Source: Candidatus Uhrbacteria bacterium RIFCSPLOWO2_01_FULL_47_25 (lineage in GTDB: Bacteria > Patescibacteriota > Patescibacteriia > GWA2-46-9). From it: 64,000 nt of DNA. The DNA lies in NCBI GenBank assembly GCA_001791325.1, contig MGEK01000004.1, positions 8,566 to 72,565 of the forward strand. Direction: 5' to 3'. A program made the translations under genes and the position numbers. Shown here piece after piece: positions 2,920 to 33,093 of this stretch. The notes beneath the pieces were generated by a model, which was not told the origin of the DNA, ran no database searches, and saw only the letters and a program-made list of their open reading frames with translations. Every line of letters starts with the position of its first letter. Positions within the stretch are counted from its first letter, which is position 1.

Positions 2920-2945
2920 CCCCGCTCGGCGGGGCAATTTCTTGC
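2920..2945 (+). terminator. putative intrinsic terminator after the ATPase gene
   Basis: GC hairpin CCCCGC-tcg-GCGGGG followed by caatttctt. Confidence 0.35.
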
Positions 2946-3044
2946 AGAAGCTCAGATACACATTCTGGACTTAGTCGGCAGTTTGTTTTATACTGCTTTG
3001 GCGTAATTTATTAACTAAAATGAAGCACACATGGATTTACGCCC

Positions 3045-3893
3045 ATGGCATCCTTCATTTTTTCGGCGGAATCCGCCGAAGCACCCTCCTTTGCTCATCA
3101 GTGTCGGAGGGTCCGCCATTCGCATTCATCCACGGCTTTACAGCCTTGGTCTTCTGCAAAGGCGGATAAATTAAACAAAAAGCGTATGGTTAGCCAAAAA
3201 ACACAAAGCAACGAGGAAACAAACATTTTACAGAACACGAATTCATCGGACGAATCAGTGGATAGTCCTGATGCTAATACTAATAGCGAAATAACAGCTA
3301 AGACGGCTAGTGCTAAATTGGCTCTTGTTGTGGAACTCATGACGCAAGCCGAGAATATGCTTGTTCAGGCGCGTCAGCTTATTCAAACAACGGTATCATT
3401 GCCGTTGCCTAAAATTGGCCGAACTATTGAGTCCGCTGATATAGGCAACGACGATTCTCCTGTGATTGAAGGAGTTTTTGACGGTCAGCAAATGATCGGC
3501 CCGGACGGCAAGCATTATTCCGTGCCAGCCAATTATGCTTCTAAGTCCAAACTGGTTGAGGGCGATCTCATGAAATTAACTATTACTCCCAAGGGAGCTT
3601 TTGTTTATAAACAAATTGGGCCGATTGCTCGTCGCCGCTTGCGCGGTATTTTAGTGTGCAATCAAGGGGGGAACGATTATTCAGCAAAAGTCAATGATCG
3701 CCTTTATCGTATTTTGACAGCCAGCGTCACTTATTTTCATGGGCGTGAAGGTGATGAAGTCATTATTTTAGTACCGGAAAACGGAGAGAGCAAATGGGCC
3801 GCGGTGGAAAATATAGTCAAGTCGTCAGAGCAGCTGGGGACCACGTTGGCTACTGGACAAGCAGTGTCCGATGAAGAAATAGATGGTATTTAA
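3045..3893 (+). CDS. hypothetical protein (low-complexity N-terminus; real start possibly ATG 3186)
   Basis: 282-aa ORF, no recognisable motifs. Confidence 0.45.
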   Translation: MASFIFSAESAEAPSFAHQCRRVRHSHSSTALQPWSSAKADKLNKKRMVSQKTQSNEETNILQNTNSSDESVDSPDANTNSEITAKTASAKLALVVELMTQAENMLVQARQLIQTTVSLPLPKIGRTIESADIGNDDSPVIEGVFDGQQMIGPDGKHYSVPANYASKSKLVEGDLMKLTITPKGAFVYKQIGPIARRRLRGILVCNQGGNDYSAKVNDRLYRILTASVTYFHGREGDEVIILVPENGESKWAAVENIVKSSEQLGTTLATGQAVSDEEIDGI

Positions 3894-16600: not shown

Positions 16601-19600
16601 CAACTCTTCCGGCGACACCTTCACGGCTGGTGTGGCTGTTGCGGCTACTAACAAAGTGCTCGTAACCGCCGGTATCCTTGCCATGGGTGCCAATGCTTTG
16701 ACCGCAGGCTCCACAGGTGTCACTGACTCTGGCCAAATTAGTGTGGCTTCCGGTCATTCTCTAACCTCAAGTGGCACCGTCACCATCGTTAGCTCGGCCG
16801 CAAGTACAGCGAGTTGCCTTGGCGGAACAACCCTGCCGGGGTGCACTGGCGCAGTGGGCACACTCACTTTATCCACTCTTGTTATCGGTGACGGAGCCAC
16901 CACCATGACCACGGCTTTTGGTGGTACCACTCCGAGCATGGCCATTTCTACGCTTCTCAATATCACTACGAACGCCACCTTCACCGCCGGTACGGGAAGT
17001 ACTATTACTTTGTCAGCGGCTGGCACTCCCATTACTCGAGACGGGAACTTCAGATGCGGTACAAGCACGGTTGCTTATACTTCCTCCACCGGAGTTGACG
17101 CCCTGTCTTCGGCCGCCATGACCGGTGACTGCACAACCGGAAACGCCTTCTACAACCTAGTTATAAACGGTACAAACAATTTTCCCGTTACTAACGATAT
17201 TATTGTTACTAATAATTTAACCGTGACGGCAGGGTCACTTACTGGTACAAGCAATGTAACCGCCAACAGTAATGTTGCCTGTGGCGTTACTTGCGGCTCG
17301 ATTACTTTGACCGGCGGCACGTTTCTCCAATCAGTAGGGGATGCCAAAAATTTTGGCACAAATGTAGACGAAGACGATACTTGGACATTTAACAATCTTA
17401 CTTTTACAGCCACCACAGATACCATAACCACGAGTTCCAATGGTACTGGCAACATAAATGTTACTGGCGACTTAACTATTTCCGGCTCAACCACTCTGGA
17501 CGCAGGAGACAGAACATTCGTTTTGTCAGGTAGTTCCGGCTCGCCGTTCGTGAAAACAGGCACTTTCACTTACAATACTTCCACGATTAAATATACTGGT
17601 ACGACAGTAACGGTATTATCTATGACCGGCACCGGTGGTAGTGATGGGTACTATAATCTCACGGTGGACGGCACCGGGCCATTTAACGCCGGCGGAGCAA
17701 TTGTAGCAAATAACGATGTCACGGTAACGTCCGGCACACTGGCTATGGGGGCGAACGCCCTCACAGTGAACGGCGGCGACATCTCGGTCAGCGGTATCTT
17801 CTCGCAAACCGCGGGCAGCGCCACCACAGTTGTCACTACTGGCTCCATTGGAGGCGCGGGTACTACGACCTTTGGCGAGCTTAACATTGGCACTGGTTCA
17901 AGTGACCAAACTACTACGGCTGGCGGCGACTTCACTGTCTCCGGCGTTCTGACCACTGTCTCATCTTCCAGCACCAACAATTTTGACGCTTCTTCTAAGA
18001 CCATCACCCTCTCGGGCACAGGCACGCCGTTTGTGAATAACGAGACGTTTACTTATGGGACTTCCACTATAAAATACACTGGCAGTGATACCACCACAGT
18101 TCTTGCGATGACTGGCACCGGTGGGACAAATGGATATTATAAATTGATAACTCAAGGCACAGGTCCGTTTAACGCTGGCGGAAGTATCACAGCCAACAAC
18201 AATATCAACATTACGAGCGGCACTTTTGCCGTTGGCGGAAACACCTTAATTGGTGCCAATATCACTGTTGACGGCGGTTCGTTGTCGGCAACAACGAGCG
18301 GCGGAAAAATTAAAATTTCCGGCGGCGGAGATTTGTCCGTCACGAGCGGAAGCATTGTTACGGCTGATGTGGCGACCCCGGTTGAAATCACAAGTTCTGA
18401 TACCGCTACGCCAACCTATGTTGGCGTGAGCGTTACTGGCGCTTCCAGTACAATAAATATCCCCGAATTGGATATTGATTATTTAAAGAGCACGGGATTT
18501 GTCGTTGGCGCGAGCGTTACCGTCACGGCCATGGATAAGGTGAGATGGGGCGGGAGCGGTGGAACATGGAATGGACAGGCGGCGGTGGGCGAAGTGCTGT
18601 TAGACGCCACGAGTTTAACTAAGACGCTTGATGGTCATGTTTTTCCAAATACATGGGCGAGCCAAGGCGGTTCTGATTGCAACGTCAGAGCGAATACTGA
18701 TGGTACTGTCACCATGACAAATTTTTCCGGAACATATAGTGGCGAAGACTATGATTGCGATAATGGCGGTACGGTAACATGGGTCAGCGGGCTCTCGATA
18801 GCCGGCACGGTTTATACTGACGAAGGGTCAACTCGTATGACCACTGGACCGACCGTGCGCGTAAAAGTTGATGGAGCAGGGGACTTCAGTGATGTGGCAG
18901 ATACTACCAATTGCCCGGGGAGTAGCCCCTGCGGTGAATACCTTATCACAGGTGTCACTCCTACGGACAGCGGAGCAGTGCTTACGATTTATCTTGATGA
19001 TGAAACAGAGAATGCCACCACTGTCACCATATCGAGCGGCTTGGATTTAACGGGCATAGACCTTTACCAAAATCGTGTCATCGTGCGATACGAAACCGGC
19101 AGCAGTATTACTAATACCAATTTAGACCAATATGACTGGGTTAACGAAGGTGATGCGAATATTGATGGAGACATTGGTTTCCAGGTGACAGCCGGCGCTT
19201 TGACAGTCTCTAAAGACAGAGAACTCCACATCTGGACAGGCAAGACTTTCACGCCGGGCGGAAGCGTTACCACAAATACCGGAGGCAGTGGAGTTGGTGG
19301 AGACGTCCATATTGTGGGAATTTTTACAGCCACGACTACCGAGAGTCATTCGGTCGGCGGCTCCTGGACTGATACTGGCACGTTCAATCCCGCCAGCTCA
19401 ACGGTCACGTTTGCCGCCACCTCTGGCACGAAAACCATCACTTCAACCGGCTCGTCATTTTATAATTTGATTATCAACGGTTCGGGCGGCGAGTTTCAGC
19501 CACAAGACGCCATGGTTGTTACAAACGACCTTACTATAACCGCGGGCACGCTGTCGGGAACGCAAAACGTGACGGTTAACGGCCATGCTGTAGGTACCGC

Positions 19601-21356: not shown

Positions 21357-21360
21357 TGAA

Positions 21361-21516
21361 GAATATGGAATATTGAATATGGAATATAGGGATGTGCTGT
21401 GAAGAATATGGAATATTGAATATGGAATATAGGGATCGTTGATTTGAGAAAATTAATTGAAGAATATAAAATTTAGAATATAGGGATCGAACGGTGGAGA
21501 ATATTGAATATACATT
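21361..21516 (+). repeat. promoter-proximal block: (GAATATN)4 - 15 bp - (GAATATN)4 - spacer - GAATATAAAATTTAGAATATA - GGGATCGAACGGTGGAGAATATTGAATATACATT. It is near-identical to 26901..27056
   Basis: Direct comparison: 21389-21516 is identical to 26929-27056; the first heptamer arrays differ at 2 positions. Confidence 0.85.
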
Positions 21517-22953
21517 ATGAAAAGTGAGATTAAGTCATTTAGAGATTTGGTGGTATGGCAAAAAGCATCTGCTTTGGCAACTTTGCTGTATAAAGTTACG
21601 GAAAATTTTCCTAAAACAGAAATATATGGAATAACAAGTCAGATGCGACGGGCAGCGGTATCGGTTTCTTCTAATATTGCCGAGGGATTTAAAAGAAATT
21701 CAAAAAAAGAAAAAGTGCAGTTTTATTCAATGGCTTATGGGTCTCTTTCGGAATTGGAAAGTCAAATAGAAATTTCTTTTCGTCTGGAATATTTAACAAT
21801 TACTAACTACGATCAAATTTTATCCGCAATCAACGAAGTTTCTCGACTCCTAGACGGTATTATTAGGTCCACTAATAGAAATTATCAAAGTAGGTTTGAT
21901 GTTCTCGTTGCTGTATCTATATTCTATATTCTATATTCTATATTCCCAATCTCACCGGCTAATGCTGGTGAAATTGGTCTGGCTGTCACAAGAAACCGCT
22001 TTGATATTGAGATGCTCTCGGGCGACACATACAAGGGTGATTTAGCCGTGTATAATAAATCAGCAGACGCCGCCTTGCCTGTGCACGTGGAATTGGCGCT
22101 CTGGAACATTAAAGAGGATTCTGAAGATATTGAGTTTGTTCAAGCGGAGTCATTGCTTAATGCCACACGTTGGTTTGAGGTTCAGCCGAAAGATTTTATT
22201 TTAGACCAAGGCGGCGATAGGCAAATTAAGTTTGAGATCACGGCTCCCAAAGACGCTTCGCCCGGAGCGTACTTGGTAATGATGCGTTTTCAGGCGGTTT
22301 TGCCGGAACATTATTTTTTGAAAGAAGGTCCAAGATTTTTGCCCGAGATTGGCGTTTTGTTTTTCATCAATGTCAGAACACTGGCCATTGACAGCGCGGC
22401 AGAAAATAATCGCTTAAATATCGTTTCATTTGAACCCGAAGGGACGCATCGCTTAACTTTTATTGACCGTTACGTGGTAAGTCCTGCCAATGCTGGCGTA
22501 TTTGACGAAGCAGTAAAAAAATTAGTGGCTAAAATTGAAAATAAAAGCATCTATTATTTTAAAGCCTCCGGCTTTGTCGTTATTAAAAACTTGTTTGGCC
22601 AGACAGTGTCACTCATTAAAATTCCCGAAAAATTTTTACTTCCCAACCGTACTCGCAGCATCCCCATCACCGTTATCACACCACCAACGGAACAATCAAA
22701 ATCCAATATTCTATATTCCATATTCTATATTCTTCAACAACAAACATACCTCGGCCCCTACACCGCGACACTAACGCTCAACGTTCCATCAAGCAATGGG
22801 GGAGTAGAGCCAATTTCAGAATCAATCAATTTCTGGATTATCCCATGGAAGTTTTGGTCGGCCGTTATTATTATAGCGTTGTTAATCGCGTTCATTATAT
22901 TAAAATTGCGGCGTCGGCTTCGGCCGGCACTAAGTGCGCTGATCGGACGCTGA
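21517..22953 (+). CDS. four-helix-bundle (23S rRNA IVS protein / Avd-like) domain fused to TM segment, DUF916-like surface domain and C-terminal TM anchor
   Basis: N-terminus FRDLVVWQKA...FPKTEIYGITSQMRRAAVSVSSNIAEGFKRNS matches the TIGR02436/PF05635 signature. Downstream WFEVQPKDF...VPKDASPGAYLVMMRF and the terminal hydrophobic helix + RRRLR resemble CscA/DUF916 proteins. Confidence 0.7.
   Translation: MKSEIKSFRDLVVWQKASALATLLYKVTENFPKTEIYGITSQMRRAAVSVSSNIAEGFKRNSKKEKVQFYSMAYGSLSELESQIEISFRLEYLTITNYDQILSAINEVSRLLDGIIRSTNRNYQSRFDVLVAVSIFYILYSIFPISPANAGEIGLAVTRNRFDIEMLSGDTYKGDLAVYNKSADAALPVHVELALWNIKEDSEDIEFVQAESLLNATRWFEVQPKDFILDQGGDRQIKFEITAPKDASPGAYLVMMRFQAVLPEHYFLKEGPRFLPEIGVLFFINVRTLAIDSAAENNRLNIVSFEPEGTHRLTFIDRYVVSPANAGVFDEAVKKLVAKIENKSIYYFKASGFVVIKNLFGQTVSLIKIPEKFLLPNRTRSIPITVITPPTEQSKSNILYSIFYILQQQTYLGPYTATLTLNVPSSNGGVEPISESINFWIIPWKFWSAVIIIALLIAFIILKLRRRLRPALSALIGR
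21918..21945 (+). repeat. (TATATTC)4 heptamer array inside the CDS at the 4HB/TM junction (inverted relative to the upstream GAATATN arrays)
   Basis: Read directly; encodes IFYILYSIF. Confidence 0.85.
22705..22732 (+). repeat. second (NATATTC)4 heptamer array inside the same CDS, just before the C-terminal TM anchor
   Basis: AATATTC TATATTC CATATTC TATATTC. Confidence 0.8.
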
Positions 22954-23030
22954 ATATGTGGAACGCTGAATTTACGCTGATAACGACGCTGATCGGACGC
23001 TGAATATGTGGAACGCTGATATTTACGCCG
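22936..23030 (+). repeat. array of about 8 ACGCTGA/ACGCCGA heptamer units (two 45-bp direct repeats) overlapping the last codons of the preceding CDS and ending 1 bp before the GxxExxY start
   Basis: GCGCTGATCGG ACGCTGAATATGTGGA ACGCTGAATTT ACGCTGATAACG ACGCTGATCGG ACGCTGAATATGTGGA ACGCTGATATTT ACGCCGAATGG. Confidence 0.85.
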
Positions 23031-23031
23031 A

Positions 23032-23463
23032 ATGGATATGAACAAGGTTAAGGATTTCTTGTATGAAAAGGAGTCGTATCAGATTAGAGGAGCGTGTTTT
23101 GATGTTTATAAAGCATTTGGTGGAGCATTTAAGGAAAAAATAGTGGATCGGGCGCTTACTAAATCTCTGGCTAAACGCGGATTAAAAGTGGACGAACAAA
23201 AACGTATAAACATTTTGTATGATGGTGAAAAAATTGGTACCTATATTCCCGACAAAATCGTAAATGATGCTATTATTTTAGAAGTGAAGGCAAAAAGTTT
23301 TATCACCAAAGATGATATAGATCAATTTTGGAAATATTTGAAAGGGTCAGACTATAAATTAGGATTCCTTGTAAATTTCGGTCCGGCAAAATTAGAAATA
23401 AAAAGAGTGGTATATGATTCAGCCAGACCAGTTCGGCGTGTTTCGGCGTCCTTATCGGCGTGA
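23032..23463 (+). CDS. GxxExxY family protein (PD-(D/E)XK nuclease-like)
   Basis: YEKESYQIRGACFDVYKAFGGAF...LEVKA...FLVNFGPAKLEIKRV: the family's diagnostic motifs. Confidence 0.75.
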   Translation: MDMNKVKDFLYEKESYQIRGACFDVYKAFGGAFKEKIVDRALTKSLAKRGLKVDEQKRINILYDGEKIGTYIPDKIVNDAIILEVKAKSFITKDDIDQFWKYLKGSDYKLGFLVNFGPAKLEIKRVVYDSARPVRRVSASLSA

Positions 23464-23506
23464 ATCAGCGTTTATATCAGCGTATTCATCAGCGTAAGTC
23501 GGCGGT
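23428..23506 (+). repeat. array of TCGGCGT x3 + TCAGCGT x3 + TCGGCGG (reverse complement of the upstream ACGCTGA/ACGCCGA array), overlapping the GxxExxY 3' end
   Basis: TTCGGCGTG TTTCGGCGTC CTTATCGGCGTG AATCAGCGT TTATATCAGCGT ATTCATCAGCGT AAGTCGGCGG. Confidence 0.85.
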
Positions 23507-23613
23507 ATTATGGTTATCCACAGGCGGGCTTGTGTCAATTCTATTACTTTTATGATATAATTCATTCAATATTAATAAGTCCTAATTATTAAAAATCGTA
23601 ATTCATTCTAAAT

Positions 23614-24882
23614 ATGGTCAAAAAACTACGCAAATATCAACGATTTACAGTAGTTTACGTTTTAATTTTTTCAATAATAACTTTCTTTTCGGGCGCGCAT
23701 ATTTGGGGGCTGTTGCCGCCAGCTCGTGCGGCTGCTCTCACCAGTGTGAAAGACGTGCTCTCGACGTCAGAGTCGGGCGCCAACGCGAACCATACAATTC
23801 AGTTCGTAACTCCTTCAGGAGTACTACTCTCAACCCATACAGTGACACTCACATTTGACGGCTCACCATTGTTTGACGTTAGCGGCCTTGATGAAGATGA
23901 TGTGGATATGAGCGAAGACACTACGGGTGATATTGGCGATTGTGGCTCATTTGCTACGGCTAAGACCACTATAGCTGGAGCACCTGACGGCACCAACTGG
24001 GGTGTTACTTTCTCCGGTCAGACCATTGTATTCACACATCCTTCTGGTGATGATAACCAAGACATTGCCGCCGGTGCGTGTGTTCAGATAAGGATCGGCG
24101 ATGGTACTGTGGCTATGGACTCAGGCACGGGCGATGCTCAGATTAATAATCCGGCTGGTAACGGCGATGGTGTGGCTGAAATTGAAACAATTGACATTGC
24201 CACCGATAGCACCGTAGACGACAGCGGCACAGCTATGACCGCCACCGTAGAGGGTGTGGCCGTGAGTGTTACTGTTGATGAAAGTTTAGCCTTCTCTATA
24301 GCGGTCGTAACATCCGGTAACTGTACAGAAGGCGGAGGCGGGACCGCGGTTACCACGACAGCAACAACCGTGCCGTTTGATAGTATCGCGCTTGCCGTGA
24401 ACACTTTTTATAGAGGTTGCCATGATTTGACGGTGAGCACTAATGCGGCAAACGGCTATACCACAACTGTCGAAGAAAATAAAAGTTTAATTCGCACCGG
24501 TACTGATGGGGGCGACAAGACAATCAATGATGCTATTTGTGATGCGGGTGACGACTGTACCTCGGCCATTGGTGCTGGGACGACGTCGCCTTGGGCCACG
24601 GCCACTGCCAATCACGGTTTTGGCTATACATGCAGTGGCAGCGCTTGTGACGCTGCTTTCGCTACAGCTGCTGAATTTAATGCCTTTCCTTGCCGTAGTT
24701 CAACAGCGTCAGATTGTGATCCTGTTGATGGACCACTGGCTCTGGCTACCCCGATTTCGTCAGGAGGAGTTCCCGTCAGTGCTCAAACTTCAAGAATTGT
24801 ATACAAGCTTTCGTTTTCCGCCACTCAACCGGCTGGAACTTACGGTAACACTATTACCTATATAACAACCCCGACATTTTAG
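23614..24882 (+). CDS. secreted surface protein with WxL-like C-terminal domain (CscB/CscC-like)
   Basis: Signal peptide/TM at N-terminus; C-terminal ~100 aa align with the giant protein's C-terminus (HGFGY...AGTYGNTITYITTPTF vs CGFGY...AGPYQTTIIYIVTPQF). Confidence 0.55.
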   Translation: MVKKLRKYQRFTVVYVLIFSIITFFSGAHIWGLLPPARAAALTSVKDVLSTSESGANANHTIQFVTPSGVLLSTHTVTLTFDGSPLFDVSGLDEDDVDMSEDTTGDIGDCGSFATAKTTIAGAPDGTNWGVTFSGQTIVFTHPSGDDNQDIAAGACVQIRIGDGTVAMDSGTGDAQINNPAGNGDGVAEIETIDIATDSTVDDSGTAMTATVEGVAVSVTVDESLAFSIAVVTSGNCTEGGGGTAVTTTATTVPFDSIALAVNTFYRGCHDLTVSTNAANGYTTTVEENKSLIRTGTDGGDKTINDAICDAGDDCTSAIGAGTTSPWATATANHGFGYTCSGSACDAAFATAAEFNAFPCRSSTASDCDPVDGPLALATPISSGGVPVSAQTSRIVYKLSFSATQPAGTYGNTITYITTPTF

Positions 24883-24959
24883 TTGAGCATTGGACGGTAT
24901 TGAATAATTTAATATCATTATCAACTCCGCCCACATGATACTATAGCGGTAATGTTGTC

Positions 24960-25904
24960 ATGAAAATTCGCTACTCGCCATCATCCTTTATTGCTTTTTT
25001 AGTCGGTGGATTAACGGTGGGCGTGATCATGTCGCCAACCGCAGTGATGGCGCAAGCAGTAAAAACTCTCACTATCTCACCCCTCACTTTTGAACTAACC
25101 GCCAATGCGGGCGAGACTATATCTAATGTCTTAAAGATATATAACAATAACGATTTTAATATATCAGCCAACATTGATGTTGAAGATTTTGCTCCGGCCG
25201 GAGAGACCGGTCAAGCAGTGGTTACCGAACCGCAGGAGGATAATACCTATTCTTTGGCTCGTTGGATTACGGTTGAGGAAGAAACATTTGAAATAGAGGC
25301 ACAAAATTTTCGGCCGATTACTTTTCATGTTAACGTTCCCCTGAACGCCGAGCCGGGAGGGCACTACGGAACAGTACTTGCTTCTATCGCCGATGGTGGT
25401 GGCGAGGGCGGAGTTAGCGTGGCATCTAAAGTAGGCGCGCTTTTACTGCTTCAGGTGGCTGGTACGGCTAAAGAGTCTCTAAACGTCGCCAGTATGGGAG
25501 CGCCGAATTTTTCCGAATACGGGCCCGTAACCATTGCCACGAGATTCCAAAATACTGGCACTGTCCATTTAAAGCCGCGGGGGTTTATTTTAGTGCAAAA
25601 TATGTTTGGCCAAGAAACAGCCAAATTAAATTTAGACCAGAAAAATGTGTTGCCTAACTCGGTGCGTAGGATAGAATCAAAATTAGACGAGAAATGGCTA
25701 TGGGGTAAATATACGGCGACCTTGACGGCGATTTACGGTTCAACCAATGAGCCACTTTCTTACACCACAACTTTTTGGGTGATCCCTTGGCGGGTGAGTT
25801 TGGCTGTCGGCCTCATACTATTGATCGTTTTCATTATTCTTTATCGGGCTCGTCGGCGGATATTTTTGGCGCTCAAAATTCTCTTAAAGGGTGAACATAG
25901 TTGA
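24960..25904 (+). CDS. DUF916/DUF3324-like cell-surface protein with C-terminal membrane anchor (CscA-like)
   Basis: Signal peptide; WITVEEETFEIEAQNFRPITFHVNVPLNAEPGGHYGTVLAS; C-terminal TM LAVGLILLIVFIILY + RARRR. Paralogous to the C-terminal half of 21517..22953. Confidence 0.55.
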   Translation: MKIRYSPSSFIAFLVGGLTVGVIMSPTAVMAQAVKTLTISPLTFELTANAGETISNVLKIYNNNDFNISANIDVEDFAPAGETGQAVVTEPQEDNTYSLARWITVEEETFEIEAQNFRPITFHVNVPLNAEPGGHYGTVLASIADGGGEGGVSVASKVGALLLLQVAGTAKESLNVASMGAPNFSEYGPVTIATRFQNTGTVHLKPRGFILVQNMFGQETAKLNLDQKNVLPNSVRRIESKLDEKWLWGKYTATLTAIYGSTNEPLSYTTTFWVIPWRVSLAVGLILLIVFIILYRARRRIFLALKILLKGEHS

Positions 25905-25974
25905 AGAATATAGAATACAGAATCTAGAATAGAGAACTTGGAACATGGAATTTAAAACATGGAATTTAAAACAC
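25905..25974 (+). repeat. ten tandem 7-bp units (AGAATAT AGAATAC AGAATCT AGAATAG AGAACTT GGAACAT GGAATTT AAAACAT GGAATTT AAAACAC) between the CscA-like gene and the dockerin gene. The dockerin gene start codon lies within the array
   Basis: Strict 7-bp periodicity read directly. Confidence 0.8.
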
Positions 25975-26894
25975 AGATTATCATTTTTTGCGGTTGTGTT
26001 GTCGTTGGTTCATTTTTCGTCATAGCGAGCAACCACGTTATTGCGCAATCAAATTCGCAGGGCGTAGGCGTTTCCATTACTATTGAGCAAACAACAACGC
26101 CGCCTCCCACTCCGCCGCCTAGCGGTGGCGGAGGAGGTGGTGGTGGAAGTACAGTTATTGTTCCATCGCCAACGGATATCGCCACATTTGTAATGAAAGG
26201 TAAGGCTTATCCAAAAGCGATAATAACGATACTGCGCAACGGCGCAGTTACTAAAACGCTGATTGCTGGAAACGACGGATTATTTGAAGCGACCATCTCC
26301 GGATTGCCTGCTGGTTTGCAGACTTTTGGCGTGTACGCGCAAGATACTGAAGGGAAAAAATCCGTCACTTTAAGTTTTACCTTAAGCCTATTGGCTAATA
26401 TGACGACCACGCTGGAGGGCTTAATTATACCGGTAACCATAGAAATATCTTCGCCGGTCGTAAATCAAGGTAATCCATTATTTATATATGGTCAGTCGTT
26501 TCCGGAAAGCAATATCAGTCTTTTTATTCAATCAAAAGAAGTAGTTAAAACGACAGCCACTAAGCCGAGCGGCAATTGGCGATATGAATTGGATACGGCG
26601 CCATTGGATTTGGGCGATCACGCGGTTCGCGCGAAAGCGCAGGCCTTAACCGGCGAGCAGAGTGAGTTTTCAGAAACCAAATTTTTTCGGGTAATACCGA
26701 AAGGAGCTCATGGGACGCCCGGCAGTTGTCCTGCGGATTTGAATGATGATAATCGTGTAGATATTACTGATTTAAGTATTTTATTGTATAATTGGGGCAC
26801 GCCAAAGAATACTCGCGCTGATTATAATAAGGATGGCAGGGTTGATATCGTTGACTTTTCAATTCTGCTTTACTATTGGGGAACGTGTGTATAG
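25959..26894 (+). CDS. secreted Ig-like-domain protein with C-terminal type-I dockerin module
   Basis: Signal peptide; Pro/Gly linker; duplicated calcium-binding segments DLNDDNRVDITDLSILLYNWG and DYNKDGRVDIVDFSILLYYWG. Confidence 0.7.
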   Translation: MEFKTQIIIFCGCVVVGSFFVIASNHVIAQSNSQGVGVSITIEQTTTPPPTPPPSGGGGGGGGSTVIVPSPTDIATFVMKGKAYPKAIITILRNGAVTKTLIAGNDGLFEATISGLPAGLQTFGVYAQDTEGKKSVTLSFTLSLLANMTTTLEGLIIPVTIEISSPVVNQGNPLFIYGQSFPESNISLFIQSKEVVKTTATKPSGNWRYELDTAPLDLGDHAVRAKAQALTGEQSEFSETKFFRVIPKGAHGTPGSCPADLNDDNRVDITDLSILLYNWGTPKNTRADYNKDGRVDIVDFSILLYYWGTCV

Positions 26895-26900
26895 TTGTAA

Positions 26901-27056
26901 GAATATGGAATATAGAATATTGAATATAGGGATGTGCTGTGAAGAATATGGAATATTGAATATGGAATATAGGGATCGTTGATTTGAGAAAATTAATTGA
27001 AGAATATAAAATTTAGAATATAGGGATCGAACGGTGGAGAATATTGAATATACATT
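26901..27056 (+). repeat. second copy of the promoter-proximal block (heptamer arrays + 128 bp identical to 21389-21516)
   Basis: Direct comparison with 21361-21516. Confidence 0.85.
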
Positions 27057-28595
27057 ATGAAAAGTGAAATTAAGTCATTTCGAGATTTGATAGTTTGGCA
27101 AAAATCTTCCAATTTAGCAACTTTAATATATGGCATTACTAACGATTTTCCCAAGAGCGAAATGTATGGTTTGACCAGTCAAATGCGCCGAGCTGTTGTA
27201 TCAGTTTCATCTAACATTGCAGAAGGCTTCAAACGAAACTCTAGAAAGGAGAAGGTACAATTCTACACAATGGCCTATGGTTCTCTTTCAGAATTAGAAA
27301 GCCAGATTGATATTTCAAAAAATCTTCACTATTTATTGGAAAGCCAATACCAAACAATAATTGAGGCAATTAACGAGGCGTCAAGGCTTTTGGACGGTAT
27401 TATTAGAGCCACTAACAGAACTCACAACGATCGTTTTTTTTCGCCTGCCATCTCTGTACTACTTGCCGTTGCGATCTCTGTATTCTATATTCAATATTCT
27501 ATATTCCCAACAGCGCCTGCCGGCGCTGTTTCGTCCGTGCGGCTTTTTTTTATTCCGGAAAATTCCGAGGTCGTTGCCGGTGATATTATAAAAAGTGACA
27601 TTTGGGTAGACACGCAGGGAAATACTATCAATGCGGTGGATATTAGTGTTTCTTATGATTCAATGGTTGAGCTTTTAAGCGCGGAGAAAAATGATTCAAT
27701 TTTGAATTTATGGGTTGAGGAACCGAGCTTTTCCGATACTACGCGCCGCGCTAAATTTACCGGCGGCCGTACTGGCGGGTTTGAGGGTCGGGGAATAATT
27801 GGGCAGTTGTATTGGAGAAATGAAAACGCCGGGGGAAAAGCAACTTTAGGCTTTGATGAGTCGTCTGTTGTTTTATTAAATGATGGATTGGGTACTCCAG
27901 CGGAGCTAGAGAGACGACAATCGGATTATAATATATTGGCCAAGGGAGAGGGTTTATTGAATTTATCTTCGGCCTCGCACCCGGATGAAAATAAATGGTA
28001 TAATCAGCCGTTTGTGCGTTTAAGTTGGCCGACAATAGAAGGCGCGATTTACAGCTATTTAGTTACGAGGGATCCGGCTCAACTACCAGATGACACGTTG
28101 GACGAGCCAGTAGGCAATATTAAGCTAAGCGACCTGACGGACGGCGTATATTATTTTAAGCTTAAACAAAAAAAACTCGGCGAAGAAGGGTGGTCCAGTG
28201 TTGTTTCCAGACAAATTAAAATTGACAAAACGCCGCCGGAATTTATTGAGGCAAAGATTTCACGTGATTCGGAACTTGTTCAAAATAAGTATTTCGCGAG
28301 CTTTGCCGCTAACGACAAGGCATCTATAGCTCGTTATGAAATAATTGAAGGGGATAGCGCTCCGGAGCCGATATTGCAGCCGCCATTTATTTTAAAAAAT
28401 CAAGATAGAAGCGTGGCCGTTACAATTAGAGCCATTGACGCGGCCGGTAATTACAAGGACATAATTATACCGGCCCTGACTTGGTGGCAAAGGCCGTCAA
28501 TTATTTTATATGTGAAAATAGGGCTTATTGTCGGGCTAGCTCTAATTGCAGCGGTGATAATAATTGTGATTATCAGGAGAAAAAAATCAATATAA
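27057..28595 (+). CDS. four-helix-bundle (Avd/23S-IVS-like) domain fused to TM, cohesin-like domain, Ig-like domains and C-terminal TM anchor
   Basis: N-terminus FRDLIVWQKSSNLATLIYGITNDFPKSEMYGLTSQMRRAVVSVSSNIAEGFKRNS. Cohesin-like INAVDISVSYDSMVELLSAE...LWVEEPSFSD. (TATATTC)4 at 27479-27506. Terminal TM + RRKKSI. Confidence 0.65.
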   Translation: MKSEIKSFRDLIVWQKSSNLATLIYGITNDFPKSEMYGLTSQMRRAVVSVSSNIAEGFKRNSRKEKVQFYTMAYGSLSELESQIDISKNLHYLLESQYQTIIEAINEASRLLDGIIRATNRTHNDRFFSPAISVLLAVAISVFYIQYSIFPTAPAGAVSSVRLFFIPENSEVVAGDIIKSDIWVDTQGNTINAVDISVSYDSMVELLSAEKNDSILNLWVEEPSFSDTTRRAKFTGGRTGGFEGRGIIGQLYWRNENAGGKATLGFDESSVVLLNDGLGTPAELERRQSDYNILAKGEGLLNLSSASHPDENKWYNQPFVRLSWPTIEGAIYSYLVTRDPAQLPDDTLDEPVGNIKLSDLTDGVYYFKLKQKKLGEEGWSSVVSRQIKIDKTPPEFIEAKISRDSELVQNKYFASFAANDKASIARYEIIEGDSAPEPILQPPFILKNQDRSVAVTIRAIDAAGNYKDIIIPALTWWQRPSIILYVKIGLIVGLALIAAVIIIVIIRRKKSI

Positions 28596-28601
28596 ACATA
28601 T

Positions 28602-29996
28602 ATGCGAGGGTGGGCGCTTAAATTATTCGTTTCAATTTGCCTAATAACGCTAACGAGTGTCACTGAAGTAAATGCTGCTGGCACCGCTTCTCTATCCCTC
28701 TCGCCGTCACAGGGCGCGTTTATTGTTGGCAACTCTTTTGATGTTTCCATATTTGTTAATACCAATGGCAATGATATTAATACGATAGAGGTTAATGTAA
28801 AATTTTCGCCAGATACCTTGCAAATAGTCAGTCCCAGCGCCGGTCAATCATTTATTTCGGTATGGATTACCCAACCTACGTTTTCCAATGAGCAGGGGAC
28901 TATTCATTTTGCCGGAGGGCTTCCTTCGCCAGGCATTAATACCACGGCTGGACTTGTTTCCACTATAACATTTAGGGCAAAAGCTCCGGGCACTGGCACC
29001 ATAGAAATTTTACCTAACTCAAAAGTTCTCTTGAACGACGGAAAGGGAACAAATATTTTAACTTCAGTTACCAAGGGCTCATACAGTCTAACTTTAGCGG
29101 CTCCTGGCGGTCCAGAAATTTCGTCCTCTACTCATCCTGACCAAAACGCCTGGTATAAAAACAATAATCCGGTTTTTAGCTGGACACGAGGTTTAAGCGC
29201 GGCGCAACCGGTTGAAAATATGACGGAATTTAGCTGGTGGTTTGATCAGGATCCAAGAGGGTATGCTGATAATAAAGCTGACGGAACGGGCTTAAACGCT
29301 TCATATAGCGACGTTCAGAGTGGTATTTGGTATTTCCACGTAAAAGGCAAAATTAGCGATTTATGGGGGCAACAAAGCTCATACGCGGTGCGTATAGATA
29401 ACACGCCGCCAGCCGCTTTTACGCCAAACATATCGCCGGACGGATCAAAGCCAAATGAGCGGCGCATCGTGTCATTTACTACTACTGATCAGCATTCCGG
29501 CCTTGATCATTACGAAGTTAAAGTATTGCCGCTTGATGAAAATACTGGCGCGGAGCCATTTTTTACTGAACATACGAGTCCGTGGCTGACCACTTCTTTG
29601 GGTATTGGTCGCTATCAAATAATTGTGCGCGCTTTTGACAAGGCTGGGAACTGGCAGGATGGGACTTTGACAATCACGAATGAACCGCCGCCGCCAACCT
29701 TAAAAGAGAAATTCAATCAGGGTATTATAGTGAATGGAAGATTCATTGCCTGGTGGATGATTCTTACCGGCAGTATTATTTTATTGCTGTTACTGCTGCT
29801 CATTTTGATATTGTGGCGCCGCGCGCATGAGGATGTTTCAGAGCAAATACAAGAGACTTTGGAAAAAGCGCACGAGCGCTTGCGGCGCCAGCATGGAAAA
29901 ATTGCCGCTGAACTTAAAGAAGAAGAGGAGGTTAAAGAAGTGTTAAGTCAGGAATTAAAAGATTTAGAAAAGGACGATCACGATAAGGGAGAGTAG
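28602..29996 (+). CDS. cohesin-like-domain surface protein with C-terminal TM anchor and charged coiled-coil tail
   Basis: Signal peptide; IEVNVKFSPDTLQIVSPSAGQSFISVWITQPTFSNEQGTIHFAGGLPSPG...TITFRAKAPGTGTIEI resembles the cohesin fold signature; THPDQNAWY domain; TM LTGSIILLLLLLLILILW. Confidence 0.55.
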   Translation: MRGWALKLFVSICLITLTSVTEVNAAGTASLSLSPSQGAFIVGNSFDVSIFVNTNGNDINTIEVNVKFSPDTLQIVSPSAGQSFISVWITQPTFSNEQGTIHFAGGLPSPGINTTAGLVSTITFRAKAPGTGTIEILPNSKVLLNDGKGTNILTSVTKGSYSLTLAAPGGPEISSSTHPDQNAWYKNNNPVFSWTRGLSAAQPVENMTEFSWWFDQDPRGYADNKADGTGLNASYSDVQSGIWYFHVKGKISDLWGQQSSYAVRIDNTPPAAFTPNISPDGSKPNERRIVSFTTTDQHSGLDHYEVKVLPLDENTGAEPFFTEHTSPWLTTSLGIGRYQIIVRAFDKAGNWQDGTLTITNEPPPPTLKEKFNQGIIVNGRFIAWWMILTGSIILLLLLLLILILWRRAHEDVSEQIQETLEKAHERLRRQHGKIAAELKEEEEVKEVLSQELKDLEKDDHDKGE

Positions 29997-30020
29997 CGGG
30001 TAGTGGCAGTTTTGAGTTGA

Positions 30021-30126
30021 AGAATATAGAATATTGAATATGGAATATGGGTATTGAACCGCGAAGAATATAGAATTTAGAATATGGGTTTGAAATTAGA
30101 AGATATAGAATTCAGAATATAGGTGT
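30021..30126 (+). repeat. heptamer arrays (AGAATAT AGAATAT TGAATAT GGAATAT; AGAATAT AGAATTT AGAATAT; AGAATTC AGAATAT) upstream of 30127
   Basis: Read directly; same family as 21361-21431. Confidence 0.8.
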
Positions 30127-31527
30127 ATGAAAAGCGAAATTAAATCGTTTAGAGATTTGATTGTGTGGCAGAAGGCAGCCGCCCTTGTGTTGATCGCTAT
30201 ATTCTATATTCTATATTCTATATTCCCAATCTCGCCAGCTAACGCTGGCTCTGCCTCACTCTCATTGGTTTCCTCAAAGCGAACTTACACCGTCGGCGAA
30301 AATGTCGCGGTTAGCGTTATTTTGAGCACGGGAGATGTTAGCATTAACGCGGCAAGCGCTACGATTACGTTTGACCAAAAGAAGCTCTCAGTAGTAAGCG
30401 TTTCTCGTTCCGGTTCAGTCTTCACTTTATGGGCGGAAGAACCAACCTTTTCAAATTCTCAAGGAGTAATTAGTTTGGGCGGAGGGTTGCCAACGCCGGG
30501 TTTTTCCGGTAGGGGAGCGATTATTATCAGAATTACTTTTCGGGCAAAAGAAGAAGGCACAACGGCTGTCAGATTTGCCGGCGGAACGGTTTTGGCGAAT
30601 GACGGACTGGGCACTAATGTTTTAGCAGGACTCACTGGTCTTGATTTAACTATTCAGGGAAGGGCGGTCGTTACAACGCCGCCGGAGAAACCCCTAGAAA
30701 GAGCGCCGGTTGTTACCCCACCAGGTCAAGTGCCGTTGGCGCCGGTTATTTTGTCGCGTACGCATCCTGACGAGTCTGGTTGGTATCGCAATGCCCAGCC
30801 GGGTATTATTTGGGAATTACCGTCTGATGCTAAGGGAGTAAGTGTTAGTATTGATCAAAACGCGAATGGTGATCCCGGCACAACCTCTGAAGGGCTATTT
30901 AACTTTTACAGCGCCAAGGAGCCGCTTAAAGATGGCGTTTGGTACGCCCATGTCAGGGTAAGCAATAGTCGCGGTTGGGGGGCGATTGGTCATTACCGCT
31001 TAGCTATTGATACCGCGCCGCCGATGATTACAACGGCAAAATTGGTGTTTGAAGCAGCCAGAACCAAGGCCATAGAATTTGCCACTAGCGACCCCTTATC
31101 ATCAACCGACTATGTATCTATTTTAGTCAATGGAGAACAGGTCGCCTCGCAAGCTAGCTCGCCATACACCTTACCGTCATTAATTCCCGGCAATCATGTG
31201 ATTACAGTAATAGCCTATGATAAAGCAGGCAATAAAGCGTCCCAGGATCTCTATTTGAGCATTTTGAGCCAAGAAATATCAAGCGCGCCAAGAACAAGTC
31301 TTTTAATCATTATCATTCTTATTCTCGCCTTGATTTTGCTGGTTATATTTATCATCTGGCACTTCTATGAACGCCATCATCGCCGGGCCATTTTGGAAGA
31401 ATTAGCCAAAACCAGGCGAGAGCTTAAAGGAATGTCGCAAAAGTTACGCTCACTGGAGGGTAAATTAAATGCCCATGCTAATGCAAATGTCAGTGAAAAG
31501 TCCCAAACAACAATTAAAAAAATATAG
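30127..31527 (+). CDS. cohesin-like-domain surface protein whose N-terminus retains only the first ~19 codons of the 4HB module (MKSEIKSFRDLIVWQKAAA) joined directly to the (TATATTC)4-encoded TM segment
   Basis: Compare MKSEIKSFRDLIVWQKAAALVLIAIFYILYSIFPISPANAG with the 21517 protein; heptamer array at 30198-30225; cohesin-like ATITFDQKKLSVVSVSRSG...LWAEEPTFSNSQG. Confidence 0.65.
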   Translation: MKSEIKSFRDLIVWQKAAALVLIAIFYILYSIFPISPANAGSASLSLVSSKRTYTVGENVAVSVILSTGDVSINAASATITFDQKKLSVVSVSRSGSVFTLWAEEPTFSNSQGVISLGGGLPTPGFSGRGAIIIRITFRAKEEGTTAVRFAGGTVLANDGLGTNVLAGLTGLDLTIQGRAVVTTPPEKPLERAPVVTPPGQVPLAPVILSRTHPDESGWYRNAQPGIIWELPSDAKGVSVSIDQNANGDPGTTSEGLFNFYSAKEPLKDGVWYAHVRVSNSRGWGAIGHYRLAIDTAPPMITTAKLVFEAARTKAIEFATSDPLSSTDYVSILVNGEQVASQASSPYTLPSLIPGNHVITVIAYDKAGNKASQDLYLSILSQEISSAPRTSLLIIIILILALILLVIFIIWHFYERHHRRAILEELAKTRRELKGMSQKLRSLEGKLNAHANANVSEKSQTTIKKI

Positions 31528-31578
31528 GTCGTAAGATGTCAGATAGTAGTTAGGAGTGTTTGTAATTAATATCAACCA

Positions 31579-31610
31579 GAAACTATCATACTATATAGTA
31601 TGATAGTTTC
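31579..31610. repeat. perfect 32-bp palindrome GAAACTATCATACTAT|ATAGTATGATAGTTTC, with an imperfect second copy at 51294-51325
   Basis: Checked base by base. Confidence 0.75.
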
Positions 31611-31698
31611 CGCACAAGAGGTGCTAGAAACACCCACAATGAACATGGGCATTCGCGTGCCTTGACTGTATCGTTAGGTTTTTGTAATATGTATGAAT

Positions 31699-31802
31699 CC
31701 CGCACCATGGCTTAACGGCCATGGTATCTGATTAACACTCTTCGGGAATTTTTTAGACATTATGACCCACGCTGATGCGTGGGGTATCCTGCATGGTGCT
31801 GG
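31699..31802. mobile_element. MITE-like element family 2 (TIR ATCCCGCACCATG / CATGGTGCTGGAT), copy E1
   Basis: Terminal inverted repeats; internal CACGCTGATGCGTGG hairpin shared with the copy at 52163. Confidence 0.55.
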
Positions 31803-31833
31803 ATGAACTTAAACTCGCATTATAAATAAAGAT

Positions 31834-32148
31834 ATGAATACAGCCGTCATCAAAACTGGGGGTAAACAATATTTGGTTAAGCCTGACCAACGACTTAAGG
31901 TTGAAAAACTAACCGGTGAAGTCGGCGCGGAGGTAGTTTTTAGCGACGTTTTGTTGGTTGCCAATAATGATCAGCTTATAGTCGGTCAACCAGTGGTAAA
32001 AGAGGCAAAAGTGACAGCCACGATTGCCAAGCAGGGTAGAGGCAAAAAAATTATCGTGCAAAAATATAAACCCAAAGTTCGTTATCAAAGGAAGCGCGGT
32101 CATCGTCAACCGTTCACAGAGATCGTTATTGGAAATATAGAGTATTAA
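31834..32148 (+). CDS. rplU: 50S ribosomal protein L21
   Basis: AVIKTGGKQYLV...KVTATIAKQGRGKKIIVQKYKPKVRYQRKRGHRQPFTEI. Confidence 0.9.
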   Translation: MNTAVIKTGGKQYLVKPDQRLKVEKLTGEVGAEVVFSDVLLVANNDQLIVGQPVVKEAKVTATIAKQGRGKKIIVQKYKPKVRYQRKRGHRQPFTEIVIGNIEY

Positions 32149-32253
32149 CCCCATTAGAGAATGCCCCGCCCCGCTACGCCACGGCGGGGTGCGGGGTGCA
32201 ATTTTCCCATACGAGCACGGGGTCTAATGCCCCGTGCGAGTTCTCTAACGGGG
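32149..32253. mobile_element. MITE/RPE-like element family 1, copy 2 (CCCCATTAGAGAATGCCCCGC...CTCTAACGGGG)
   Basis: TIRs; flanked by TTAA / TTAAC direct repeat; begins immediately after the rplU TAA. Confidence 0.65.
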
Positions 32254-32259
32254 TTAACT

Positions 32260-32319
32260 TACGAAAATACGAAATAATACGAAAGTACGAAATTGATCTT
32301 GACTTACGAAAGTACGAAA
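32260..32319 (+). repeat. six TACGAAA units with 8-10 bp spacing
   Basis: Units at 32260, 32268, 32278, 32286, 32305, 32313. Confidence 0.7.
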
Positions 32320-32322
32320 AGA

Positions 32323-32970
32323 TTAGATTTCTTTTCTATTAAGGAAAGCGCTTTGCAATGTTGCTTCATCCGCGTATTCCAGCCGTGAGCCAGTGGGCAG
32401 GCCTCTGGCTAGACGCGTAATTTTGATTTTAGTTGGTTTTAATAGTTTGGCTAAGTATAAGGCCGTGGCGTCTCCTTCTAAATTGTTATTAAGCGCTAAA
32501 ATAATCTCAATAATTCCGTCTGATTTAATTCTTTCATAAAGCTCTTTAAATCTAAGCTGTTTAGGATTAATGCCCTCAATTGGGTTAAGTAGGCCCCCTA
32601 GCACAAAGTATAGCCCGTGGTAAAGATTTGTTTGTTCAATGGGAAAAATATCGCGCCCTTCGGCAACCACGCATAATTCCATCTTGTTTCTTTTGACATT
32701 ACCGCATATAGAGCAGATTGATTTCTCGCTAAATTGTCCGCATTGTTTACAGGCAGTGACTTGTTTGTGAAGATTTAAAATTGAAGTAGCCAACAGCGCG
32801 GCTGTTTCTTGTTTGCCTTGCAACAGCGAAAAGGCAAATCTTTCCGCGGTACGGCGTCCAATGCCGGGTAAAACCATAAAGGCTTCAATGGCGCGACGTA
32901 ATGGTTCTGGATAGCGAGACATACCCCGTATATCAACATTCATAGGCAAACACTGCACGGCGTTTGCCAA
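32323..32970 (-). CDS. recR: recombination protein RecR (probable true start at Met 17, near 32922)
   Basis: YPEPLRRAIEAFMVLPGIGRRTAERFAF; C4 zinc finger CKQCGQFSEKSICSIC; Toprim domain. Confidence 0.85.
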   Translation of the reverse strand: MANAVQCLPMNVDIRGMSRYPEPLRRAIEAFMVLPGIGRRTAERFAFSLLQGKQETAALLATSILNLHKQVTACKQCGQFSEKSICSICGNVKRNKMELCVVAEGRDIFPIEQTNLYHGLYFVLGGLLNPIEGINPKQLRFKELYERIKSDGIIEIILALNNNLEGDATALYLAKLLKPTKIKITRLARGLPTGSRLEYADEATLQSAFLNRKEI

Positions 32971-33093
32971 TCAATATAAGCTGATACCCAATGTTTATTA
33001 GATATTGGTAATCAGCAAAGAAGTTCATATGATAACAATTTTGTAATGAATGTTGTATTACGGGGCATAGCAGTTGGAGCTATAAGCCGTAAG

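Follow-up and report, generated by a model that had tools for sequence, protein, structure and literature searches.

The gene examined here, an open reading frame (ORF) at positions 30127–31527, lies in a 64,000-nt stretch of the genome of Candidatus Uhrbacteria bacterium RIFCSPLOWO2_01_FULL_47_25 (assembly GCA_001791325.1, contig MGEK01000004.1, positions 8,566–72,565), the whole of which is referred to below as the window. The parts of this gene, the other cassettes and the orphan GAATATN and TATATTC arrays described lie on the + strand, and ORFs are named by their start positions. ORF 30127 belongs to a cell-surface gene cluster at 7.7–31.5 kb of the window that encodes a 4556-aa protein, two WxLIP-like proteins, Ig/dockerin-like proteins and three cohesin-like proteins, with housekeeping genes (metK, dnaX, rplU, recR, dnaB, tRNA synthetases and clpB) on its flanks. 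Its 466-aa product consists of a leader, a Cohesin-like domain, an Ig-like domain, a C-terminal transmembrane segment and a charged tail; Pfam places residues 53–160 in the Cohesin family PF00963 (36.4 bits against a cut-off of 24.1, E = 7e-9) and also gives a Big_13 match (E = 2.5e-7). Our subject is the 5' end of this gene, in which a piece of a four-helix-bundle (4HB) gene stands between two sets of complementary tandem heptamer repeats.

The ORF 30127 protein is identical on all 24 contigs read (32 index blocks; assemblies from NCBI, ENA and JGI). Six loci were compared, and in this region five of them (L001, L002, L003, L005 and L006) agree with the window at 99.97–100% identity with zero indels, which rules out an assembly collapse or artefact at 30127. 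The sixth, L004 (GCA_001002965.1), also matches the window; its deletions, found at several unrelated places, look like draft assembly gaps and were left out as evidence of polymorphism.

The start codon and codons 2–20 of ORF 30127 (30127–30186; MKSEIKSFRDLIVWQKAAAL) are what is left of a 4HB gene and now appear to form the n-region of the leader peptide. At the DNA level this piece is 81% identical over 57 nt to the beginning of the 4HB domain of ORF 21517 (21516–21572); measured against the same reference, the copy in ORF 27057 is 82% identical. The original prediction, which had rightly recognized a 4HB remnant, described this DNA as near-identical to both paralogs, and the measured values amount to clear homology rather than near-identity. 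Searches of the window with the two 4HB domains recovered 30127 at E = 1e-8 and 5e-8 (tblastn), and its protein aligns with the 27057 domain at 79% identity over 24 residues (blastp-short, E = 2e-17). The shared stretch contains FRDLxVWQK, one of the best conserved motifs of the 4HB family, throughout which L11 and W14 are invariant and S7, F8, V13, Q15 and K16 nearly so. Because of this motif and these E-values the N-terminus is taken as a piece of a 4HB gene; together with the homology of the flanks, the E-values rule out a short coincidental motif. Insertion of a 4HB gene into an older 20-codon leader is likewise ruled out, the 20 codons being the conserved first helix of the family. The models PF05635 and TIGR02436 find no match in ORF 30127 at E ≤ 0.01, only residues 1–20 being homologous, and by its sequence the ORF is a remnant of a member of this family, not a member. 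From codon 20 it runs straight through five linker codons into a perfect (TATATTC)4 array, then PISPANA/G (here and below, the slash within a peptide marks predicted cleavage) and the Cohesin domain.

In the window the heptamer pattern GAATATNGAATAT has 32 matches, where 0.69 would be expected. Its two sets of arrays are inverted relative to each other: GAATATN arrays, of which two to four lie upstream of each start codon, are complementary to TATATTC arrays 3' of the 4HB sequence. In the 30127 copy the 5' arm, A1 (30005–30058), comprises (GAATATN)4 at 30022–30050, as called by Tandem Repeats Finder (TRF), and flanks that pair with the sequence encoding the c-region. The core of the 3' arm (30197–30225) is the perfect (TATATTC)4, 4.1 units by TRF, whose translation IFYILYSIF would make up the h-region of the leader; its distal part (30226–30248) encodes PISPANA/G, a c-region with an AxA motif and predicted cleavage between 30246 and 30247. 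Pairing therefore continues past the heptamers into the sequence encoding the signal-peptidase region, and the duplex of A1 with 30189–30244 has 45 pairs (29 AU, 10 GC, 6 GU) and a dG of -43.1 kcal/mol. The 5' array unit recurs in two degenerate forms, A2 and A3, over 30059–30126 and up to the start codon (repeat families D1 and D3). They are alternative partners of the 3' arm (alternative duplex, dG -39.5 kcal/mol), and TRF reports a 37-nt higher-order period over 30028–30132. For 30005–30245 as a whole, the predicted fold has -65.9 kcal/mol (z -4.1) if taken from the + strand, against -45.1 for the - strand, the sense strand folding better because of 6–8 G-U pairs per stem. Shine-Dalgarno spacing is atypical in all copies and was not used in arguments about start codons. 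Promoters in the arrays were considered and dropped: sigma-70-like consensus matches number 53 against 23 expected in a region rich in AT, but they are weak and none is specifically tied to an array. No Rfam family, rRNA included, matches 20500–33000 at E ≤ 1, and no known RNA family was thus found here.

Two intact cassettes show what the remnant in ORF 30127 corresponds to. That of the WxLIP-like ORF 21517–22953 spans 21342–21971, with 5' arrays at 21357–21511, the 4HB sequence at 21517–21891 and a (TATATTC)4 arm at 21916–21945 followed by ISPANA/G; its duplexes range from -38.6 to -45.8 kcal/mol. The cassette of the cohesin-like ORF 27057–28595 (26880–27533) has 5' arrays at 26897–27051, the 4HB sequence at 27057–27431 and a 3' arm at 27470–27522, with 50-nt inverted arms (I2) and an A2 duplex of 46 pairs (dG -67.3 kcal/mol). 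Both 4HB domains score far above the family cut-offs, at 128.9 (ORF 21517) and 124.9 bits (ORF 27057) for PF05635 in Pfam (cut-off 33.8) and 119 and 116 bits for TIGR02436 in NCBIfam (cut-off 24). Across the three window copies the stems have 44–50 pairs and about -38 to -67 kcal/mol. The same architecture is found at 22925–23505 around another cargo, a gene for a GxxExxY (PDDEXK_3) protein identified by Pfam and NCBIfam (23032–23463), with ACGCTGA arrays at 22937–23020, TCAGCGT arrays at 23432–23496 and a duplex of 72 pairs (dG -94.8 kcal/mol). Its 5' arrays overlap the ORF 21517 stop codon; at the other end, array sequence is translated as the C-terminal tail of the GxxExxY protein.

Pairwise alignment with the paralogs places the deletion junction of ORF 30127 within 30175–30196 (codons 17–23, AAALVLI). 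The ORF lacks 110 codons relative to ORF 21517 and 117 relative to ORF 27057, with the reading frame kept, as had been proposed. However, the proposed clean deletion between boundary repeats, with an excision footprint, is not supported at this junction: the repeats are inverted and both sets are intact, 20 codons of the 4HB gene are left, and the endpoints fall inside its ORF, one after about codon 20 and the other about five codons 5' of the 3' array. Recombination between repeats so oriented would turn the segment around rather than remove it. At the junction, A-x-A-L (GCN-YTN) could be encoded from either parent (WQKA-SAL on the 5' side; VLLAVA, or ALALCIT in the ortholog P0005, on the 3' side), so that aligning the three 5' regions narrows the junction to codons 17–23 but, short of a direct ancestor, leaves the exact endpoint ambiguous, with microhomology of a few bases at most. 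ORFs 21517 and 27057 contain zero in-frame ATG, GTG or TTG codons between the 4HB domain and the mature protein. The surface protein would thus need the start codon of the 4HB sequence, and a deletion would leave a working gene only if it kept the frame, for which reason the clean, in-frame look is better explained by selection.

On its 3' side the cassette ends at the leader/mature junction. Over 52 nt, positions 21917–21968 and 30197–30248 share 94% of their bases, past which they are not similar, and the homology of the 21517 and 30127 cassettes stops exactly at the Gly codon after ANA; the mature proteins behind this boundary belong to different families, WxLIP-like and cohesin-like, respectively. 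The 5' edge of the similarity lies a few bases ahead of the first array. Orthologs of 30127 and the paralog 28602 align with it from G/A-S/T-ASLSL (slashes here separating alternative residues) onward, that is, from the mature N-terminus. By inspection, the leader of ORF 30127 has K2, K6, R9 and K16, a hydrophobic stretch from A17 to P37, and A38-N-A40 before G41. As the 3' boundary is the leader/mature junction and no start codon intervenes, we infer from the sequence that the leader takes its start codon, its hydrophobic core (the translated 3' arm) and its cleavage region from the cassette. Translation presumably begins at the 4HB ATG and the leader is presumably cleaved at ANA/G; the remnant and one hairpin arm would appear now to encode the export signal.

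Orthologous loci hold this leader in a range of states. P0007 (66% identity) and P0008 (46%) have plain signal peptides, zero arrays and start codons that overlap the upstream gene. P0005 (63%; locus L007) carries a different partial 4HB deletion, which keeps residues 1–21 and 104–125 between GAACNNN arms upstream and NNNGTTC arms downstream; its 5' endpoint is similar to that of 30127 and its 3' endpoint is another one. In P0003 (67%; L094), with GAAC-type arrays, the 4HB trace is reduced to an FR.L motif. The closest ortholog, P0002 (88%; L008), has an N-terminal GxxExxY remnant between CACTAAT and ATTAGTG arrays, and P0004 (69%; L093) has the same two array types with no ORF remnant, a solo hairpin. 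In the syntenic locus L093 the ortholog of ORF 27057 is 381 aa long, lacks the 4HB domain and has a leader of TACGAAA/TTTCGTA arrays, while a GAATAT/TATATTC solo hairpin is carried there by the ortholog of ORF 28602, whose leader in the window is plain. The CACTAAT type is present on all three cohesin-like leaders of L008. In total, solo hairpins are found on three leaders in L093 and two in L008. The idea that the 4HB segment is separable and can be present or absent at orthologous positions is thereby borne out, both by the L093 ortholog of ORF 27057 and by the plain leaders of P0007 and P0008; the comparison across related genomes that had been suggested yielded empty, partial (P0005), trace, other-cargo and solo states.

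Arm sequences differ among these loci and always change as a pair: GAATATN/TATATTC in the window, GAACNNN/NNNGTTC in L007 and L094, and TACGAAA/TTTCGTA and CACTAAT/ATTAGTG in L093 and L008. Read from the sequences, this is covariation at the level of the whole heptamer. A distant fusion of 4HB and cohesin-like sequence (P0065, 726 aa; L009, 4540–5140) has ACAAGGA/TCCTTGT arrays; there a long array of the 5' type separates the 4HB domain from the signal peptide, and the host keeps its own ATG (KKQGTR-MSLLFF).

Between the intact 4HB domains of ORFs 21517 and 27057, 16% of the non-synonymous sites differ and 78% of the synonymous ones (pN 0.16, pS 0.78), from which it follows that these copies are old and under purifying selection; this would make the full state functional and the 30127 state derived. 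The 5' arrays suggest more recent exchange: 21370–21549 and 26910–27089, which comprise the arrays and the first ~30 nt of the ORF, are identical at 176 of 180 nt beside 4HB synonymous sites that are saturated, which points to recent gene conversion among the cassettes, confined to the arrays. Upstream of the 27057 ortholog, L001 (GCA_001791385.1; 6814–6837 against window 26940–27021) has one extra 58-nt 5' array unit, either copy-number variation or an assembly difference.

To place these copies in a wider frame, we compared 80 loci from many phyla (L010–L089) with 82 4HB ORFs. For 60 of the 82, the region upstream of the start is complementary to the region at the stop beyond 95% of cross-locus pairings. 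Of the 46 strongest stems, 42 have arms with a 7-nt period and four have arms with an 8-nt period; arms have a median length of ~31 nt, the 5' one stopping ~12 nt short of the start codon and the 3' one setting in ~7 nt past the end of the ORF. The heptamer, and with it the complementary arms, differs from locus to locus. Fusion to a leader is also seen elsewhere. Eleven (about 9%) of the 120 closest 4HB relatives are 225–293 aa long, and all 10 of the long relatives that were read continue in frame into a hydrophobic leader, most of them pilin-like; six of these 10 match the N_methyl prepilin motif (one above the Pfam cut-off) directly after SKSYILNS, which is translated array. Two 4HB–pilin fusions (L090 and L092, both at 2940–3420) occupy the same position in operons for type IV pili, which also code for PilC, pilins and prepilin peptidase. 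The expected arms are present in both, and both resemble minor type IV pilins (SLNSKSYILNS..G/FTxVEL), with no canonical start codon between the 4HB domain and the pilin motif. The pilin-like fusions belong to the same 4HB clade as the window copies, their SKSYILNS standing immediately ahead of the G/FTxxE motif. A link of 4HB genes to heptamer arrays or leader peptides was not found in the literature, for which full-text coverage was incomplete.

We consider it probable that the leader of ORF 30127 is a hairpin-bracketed 4HB cassette with an internal deletion, an intermediate toward solo hairpin leaders. In the intact form, the cassette would consist of (GAATATN)n arrays, a 4HB gene with its own start and no stop, and a complementary (TATATTC)n arm that continues into the coding sequence of an AxA signal-peptidase-type site; seated in frame at the 5' end of surface-protein genes, it would give the leader its start, core and cleavage region. 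An in-frame deletion of ~330–351 nt would then have removed 4HB codons ~21 to ~130 from the 30127 copy, leaving arrays, start codon and 20 codons to be read as an n-h-c signal peptide, and only in-frame deletions would be tolerated in a host protein that has no start codon of its own. ORF 30127 would thus stand between ORF-bearing cassettes and ORF-less solo hairpin leaders. The direction and number of the deletion events are inferred, as is any role of the stem in RNA. Read in this way, ORF 30127 suggests how genes enclosed in hairpins may become established in secreted-protein leaders and later decay in place.

Several points weigh against this reading. The signal-peptide status was judged by eye (a positive n-region, ~20 hydrophobic residues, ANA at -3 to -1), and in-frame GTG/TTG codons at positions 11, 13, 21 and 22 of ORF 30127 are possible alternative starts. 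Export might be blocked in ORFs 21517 and 27057, where, unusually, a folded domain of 125 residues precedes the Sec signal. The G-U strand bias of the window copies is not consistent across the 80 loci from other genomes, so that the stem may act in RNA or in DNA. Finally, GxxExxY genes are almost never fused: their 120 closest homologs are 130–150 aa long except for two (179 and 184 aa) with non-leader extensions, and the habit of fusing to leaders is accordingly mainly a 4HB trait.

A further argument against our reading is that the hairpin may have come first, the arrays being an intrinsic regulatory feature of the mRNA (translation or stability) whose loop 4HB and GxxExxY genes invaded later, much as IVS elements invade the loops of rRNA helices, with ORF 30127 having purged most of its invader. 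The ORF-less solo hairpins on three L093 and two L008 leaders would be expected on such a history, and in the window the + strand folds better than the - strand with 6–8 G-U pairs per stem, as an RNA structure would. We nevertheless regard it as unlikely. The distant orthologs P0007 and P0008 have neither arrays nor an intergenic spacer, so the hairpin is not ancestral to the gene; free-standing 4HB genes in other phyla, away from genes for secreted proteins, carry such arms as well, which means that the arms travel with the cargo; and the remnants in 30127, P0005 and P0002 are evidence of descent from ORF-bearing hairpins for at least some of the near-solo ones.

Less probable still is the model of the original prediction, in which a mobile cassette was precisely excised by recombination between its boundary repeats and left a clean footprint. 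Repeats do flank the module, the frame is kept, and 4HB is present or absent at orthologous genes. The geometry of the junction set out above (inverted, intact repeats, endpoints in the ORF and 20 remaining 4HB codons) is nonetheless not that of such an event, and the different internal deletion of P0005 fits piecemeal decay rather than site-specific excision. Moreover, a Pfam scan of 28 of the 44 window ORFs of at least 140 aa found no reverse transcriptase, transposase, integrase or recombinase. Least credible is phase variation, with the heptamer tract (7 not being a multiple of 3) as a slipped-strand on/off switch and the 4HB remnant incidental: a perfect four-unit tract inside the coding region of three surface-protein genes, the 58-nt unit difference upstream of ORF 27057 in L001, and parallels in the CTCTT leader repeats of Neisseria opa and the 7-bp repeats of Haemophilus influenzae hmw (PMC8262952) speak for it, but the tract is short (four units) and imperfect in ORF 27057 and relatives, no 3' array (30197–30225, 21916–21945 or 27477–27506) differs in copy number among the six contigs, and the complementary 5' arrays and their covariation are left unexplained.

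Further arrays of these kinds lie outside the cassettes. An orphan 3'-type TATATTC array inside ORF 21517 (22703–22736; context SNILYSIFYILQQQ) is in frame and translated as NILYSIFYIL; the paralog 24960 has no insert at this position, reading KWLWGKY there. This array is 88% complementary to the GAATAT arrays at 21357/21400 (I8, I9), with a duplex dG of -49.1 kcal/mol. An orphan 5'-type GAATATN array called by TRF at 25902–25973 extends into ORF 25959, taking in its start codon, and closes with a 14-nt tandem duplication (AACATGGAATTTAA x2.3) by which the ATG is doubled; no convincing 3' partner was found for it, the duplex with the following leader reaching only -16.3 kcal/mol. In the rplU–recR interval (32150–32330), nested GC-rich palindromes are followed by TACGAAA arrays with no nearby complement; TACGAAA and its flanking words (TACGAAATTGATCT) also form the leader hairpin of the ORF 27057 ortholog at L093 3302–3470. 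The 4556-aa ORF (7686–21356; TIIYIVTPQF) and a 422-aa ORF (23614–24882; TITYITTPTF) have a C-terminal motif in common. In L007 the cassette directly follows a gene end of this type, which the sequence just 5' of the 30127 arrays (GGCAGTTTTGAGTTGAAG) also resembles. At the left edge of the window (358–2916) lies an ORF for an 852-aa TrwB/VirD4-like coupling-protein ATPase.

Beyond this locus, we entertain, with the odds rather against it, a broader reading in which 4HB and GxxExxY genes are the cargo of widespread, undescribed "gene-in-a-hairpin" elements with locus-specific tandem-heptamer arms, which would explain many orphan heptamer arrays and would have colonized leader-coding regions of exported proteins in Patescibacteria, both Sec-type surface proteins and type IV pilins. 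The T-rich arm would there be read as a hydrophobic leader, and the signal peptidase or prepilin peptidase of the host would cut the element-encoded part off the mature protein, possibly the protein-level counterpart of the removal of intervening sequences (IVSs) from rRNA or of intein splicing. On this tentative view, ORF 30127 might be a decaying copy halfway to a solo hairpin leader.

IVSs of 23S rRNA, known in Leptospira and Coxiella, share several features with the window cassettes: PF05635/TIGR02436 cargo between long, stem-forming inverted repeats, sporadic presence, and some copies without an ORF. In the window copies, too, a cargo ORF is bracketed by inverted repeats that form long stems. 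They differ in their host, which for the IVS is an rRNA helix, whereas the window copies sit at the 5' ends of protein-coding genes, and in that the 4HB ORF of the window is in frame with its host and has no stop codon. Because RNase III cutting without religation would destroy the host message, "removal" of the cassette could take place only at the protein level or not at all. To our knowledge, heptamer periodicity of the arms is not part of the description of the IVS. ORF-containing IVSs have also been reported among rRNA insertions of the Candidate Phyla Radiation (CPR), and the 4HB protein has been described as functionally uncharacterized (PMC11270868). The family, named after the 23S rRNA IVS protein, has thousands of members and no known function.

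Cyanobacterial short tandemly repeated repetitive (STRR) sequences are heptanucleotide arrays. Convergent GGGAATC heptamer pairs occur in Xanthomonas, with 70–75 inverted pairs able to form stem-loops (PMC4692102), and TAACTGA heptamer repeats have been described in Beggiatoaceae and cyanobacteria (PMC4679880). These simple sequence repeat (SSR) arrays (Xanthomonas, Beggiatoaceae and STRR) resemble those of the window in their tandem 7-nt units, about four per array, and in being mostly intergenic and beside hypothetical genes. Neither of the two heptamer papers (PMC4692102, PMC4679880) ties them to 4HB, GxxExxY or leaders, and "helix bundle" and "23S" occur 0 times in each. Unlike the published arrays, the array pairs of the window each bracket a 4HB or GxxExxY gene or its remnant. 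The 4HB arms may connect to the unexplained SSRs of Xanthomonas and cyanobacteria. If the reading given here holds, the heptamer-array hairpin would be the defining DNA context of the 4HB family in every setting and a possible explanation of orphan heptamer arrays.

MITEs, which are miniature transposable elements with inverted repeats, arise from transposons by internal deletion. Like the cassettes, they grade from full through partial cargo to bare arms, and the terminal inverted repeats stay the same along the series; they differ in that the arms of the cassettes are tandem heptamers and the derivative is translated within a host protein. No transposase was found in the scanned window ORFs, and no target-site duplication was evident in the cassette-edge alignments, although no systematic search for one was made. 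The CTCTT repeats in the leaders of Neisseria opa genes cause phase variation by frameshift. There, as here, a tandem DNA repeat encodes the hydrophobic core of the signal peptide of a surface protein, but no gene is embedded at the opa repeats, and they lack a complementary partner upstream. Avd proteins of diversity-generating retroelements (DGRs) belong to a related fold family (bAvd PF22296, 34–36 bits), though these scores stay below the cut-off of 40, as do those for NF033474 (36–39 against 80). Neither a reverse transcriptase domain, in the 28 of 44 ORFs scanned, nor a template/variable repeat pair was found in the window, and a DGR/Avd identity is ruled out by the sub-cut-off scores and by the scanned ORFs having no reverse transcriptase.

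Set beside these systems, a cassette that is read through into its host protein would replace the signal peptide while sparing the mature product, which would be a new niche for a selfish or accessory gene. It would likewise add a new way for the leader peptides of CPR surface proteins and pilins to diversify. For annotation, apparent "4HB-cohesin" and "4HB-pilin" fusions and odd N-termini would then be leader cassettes or their remnants rather than new domain architectures.

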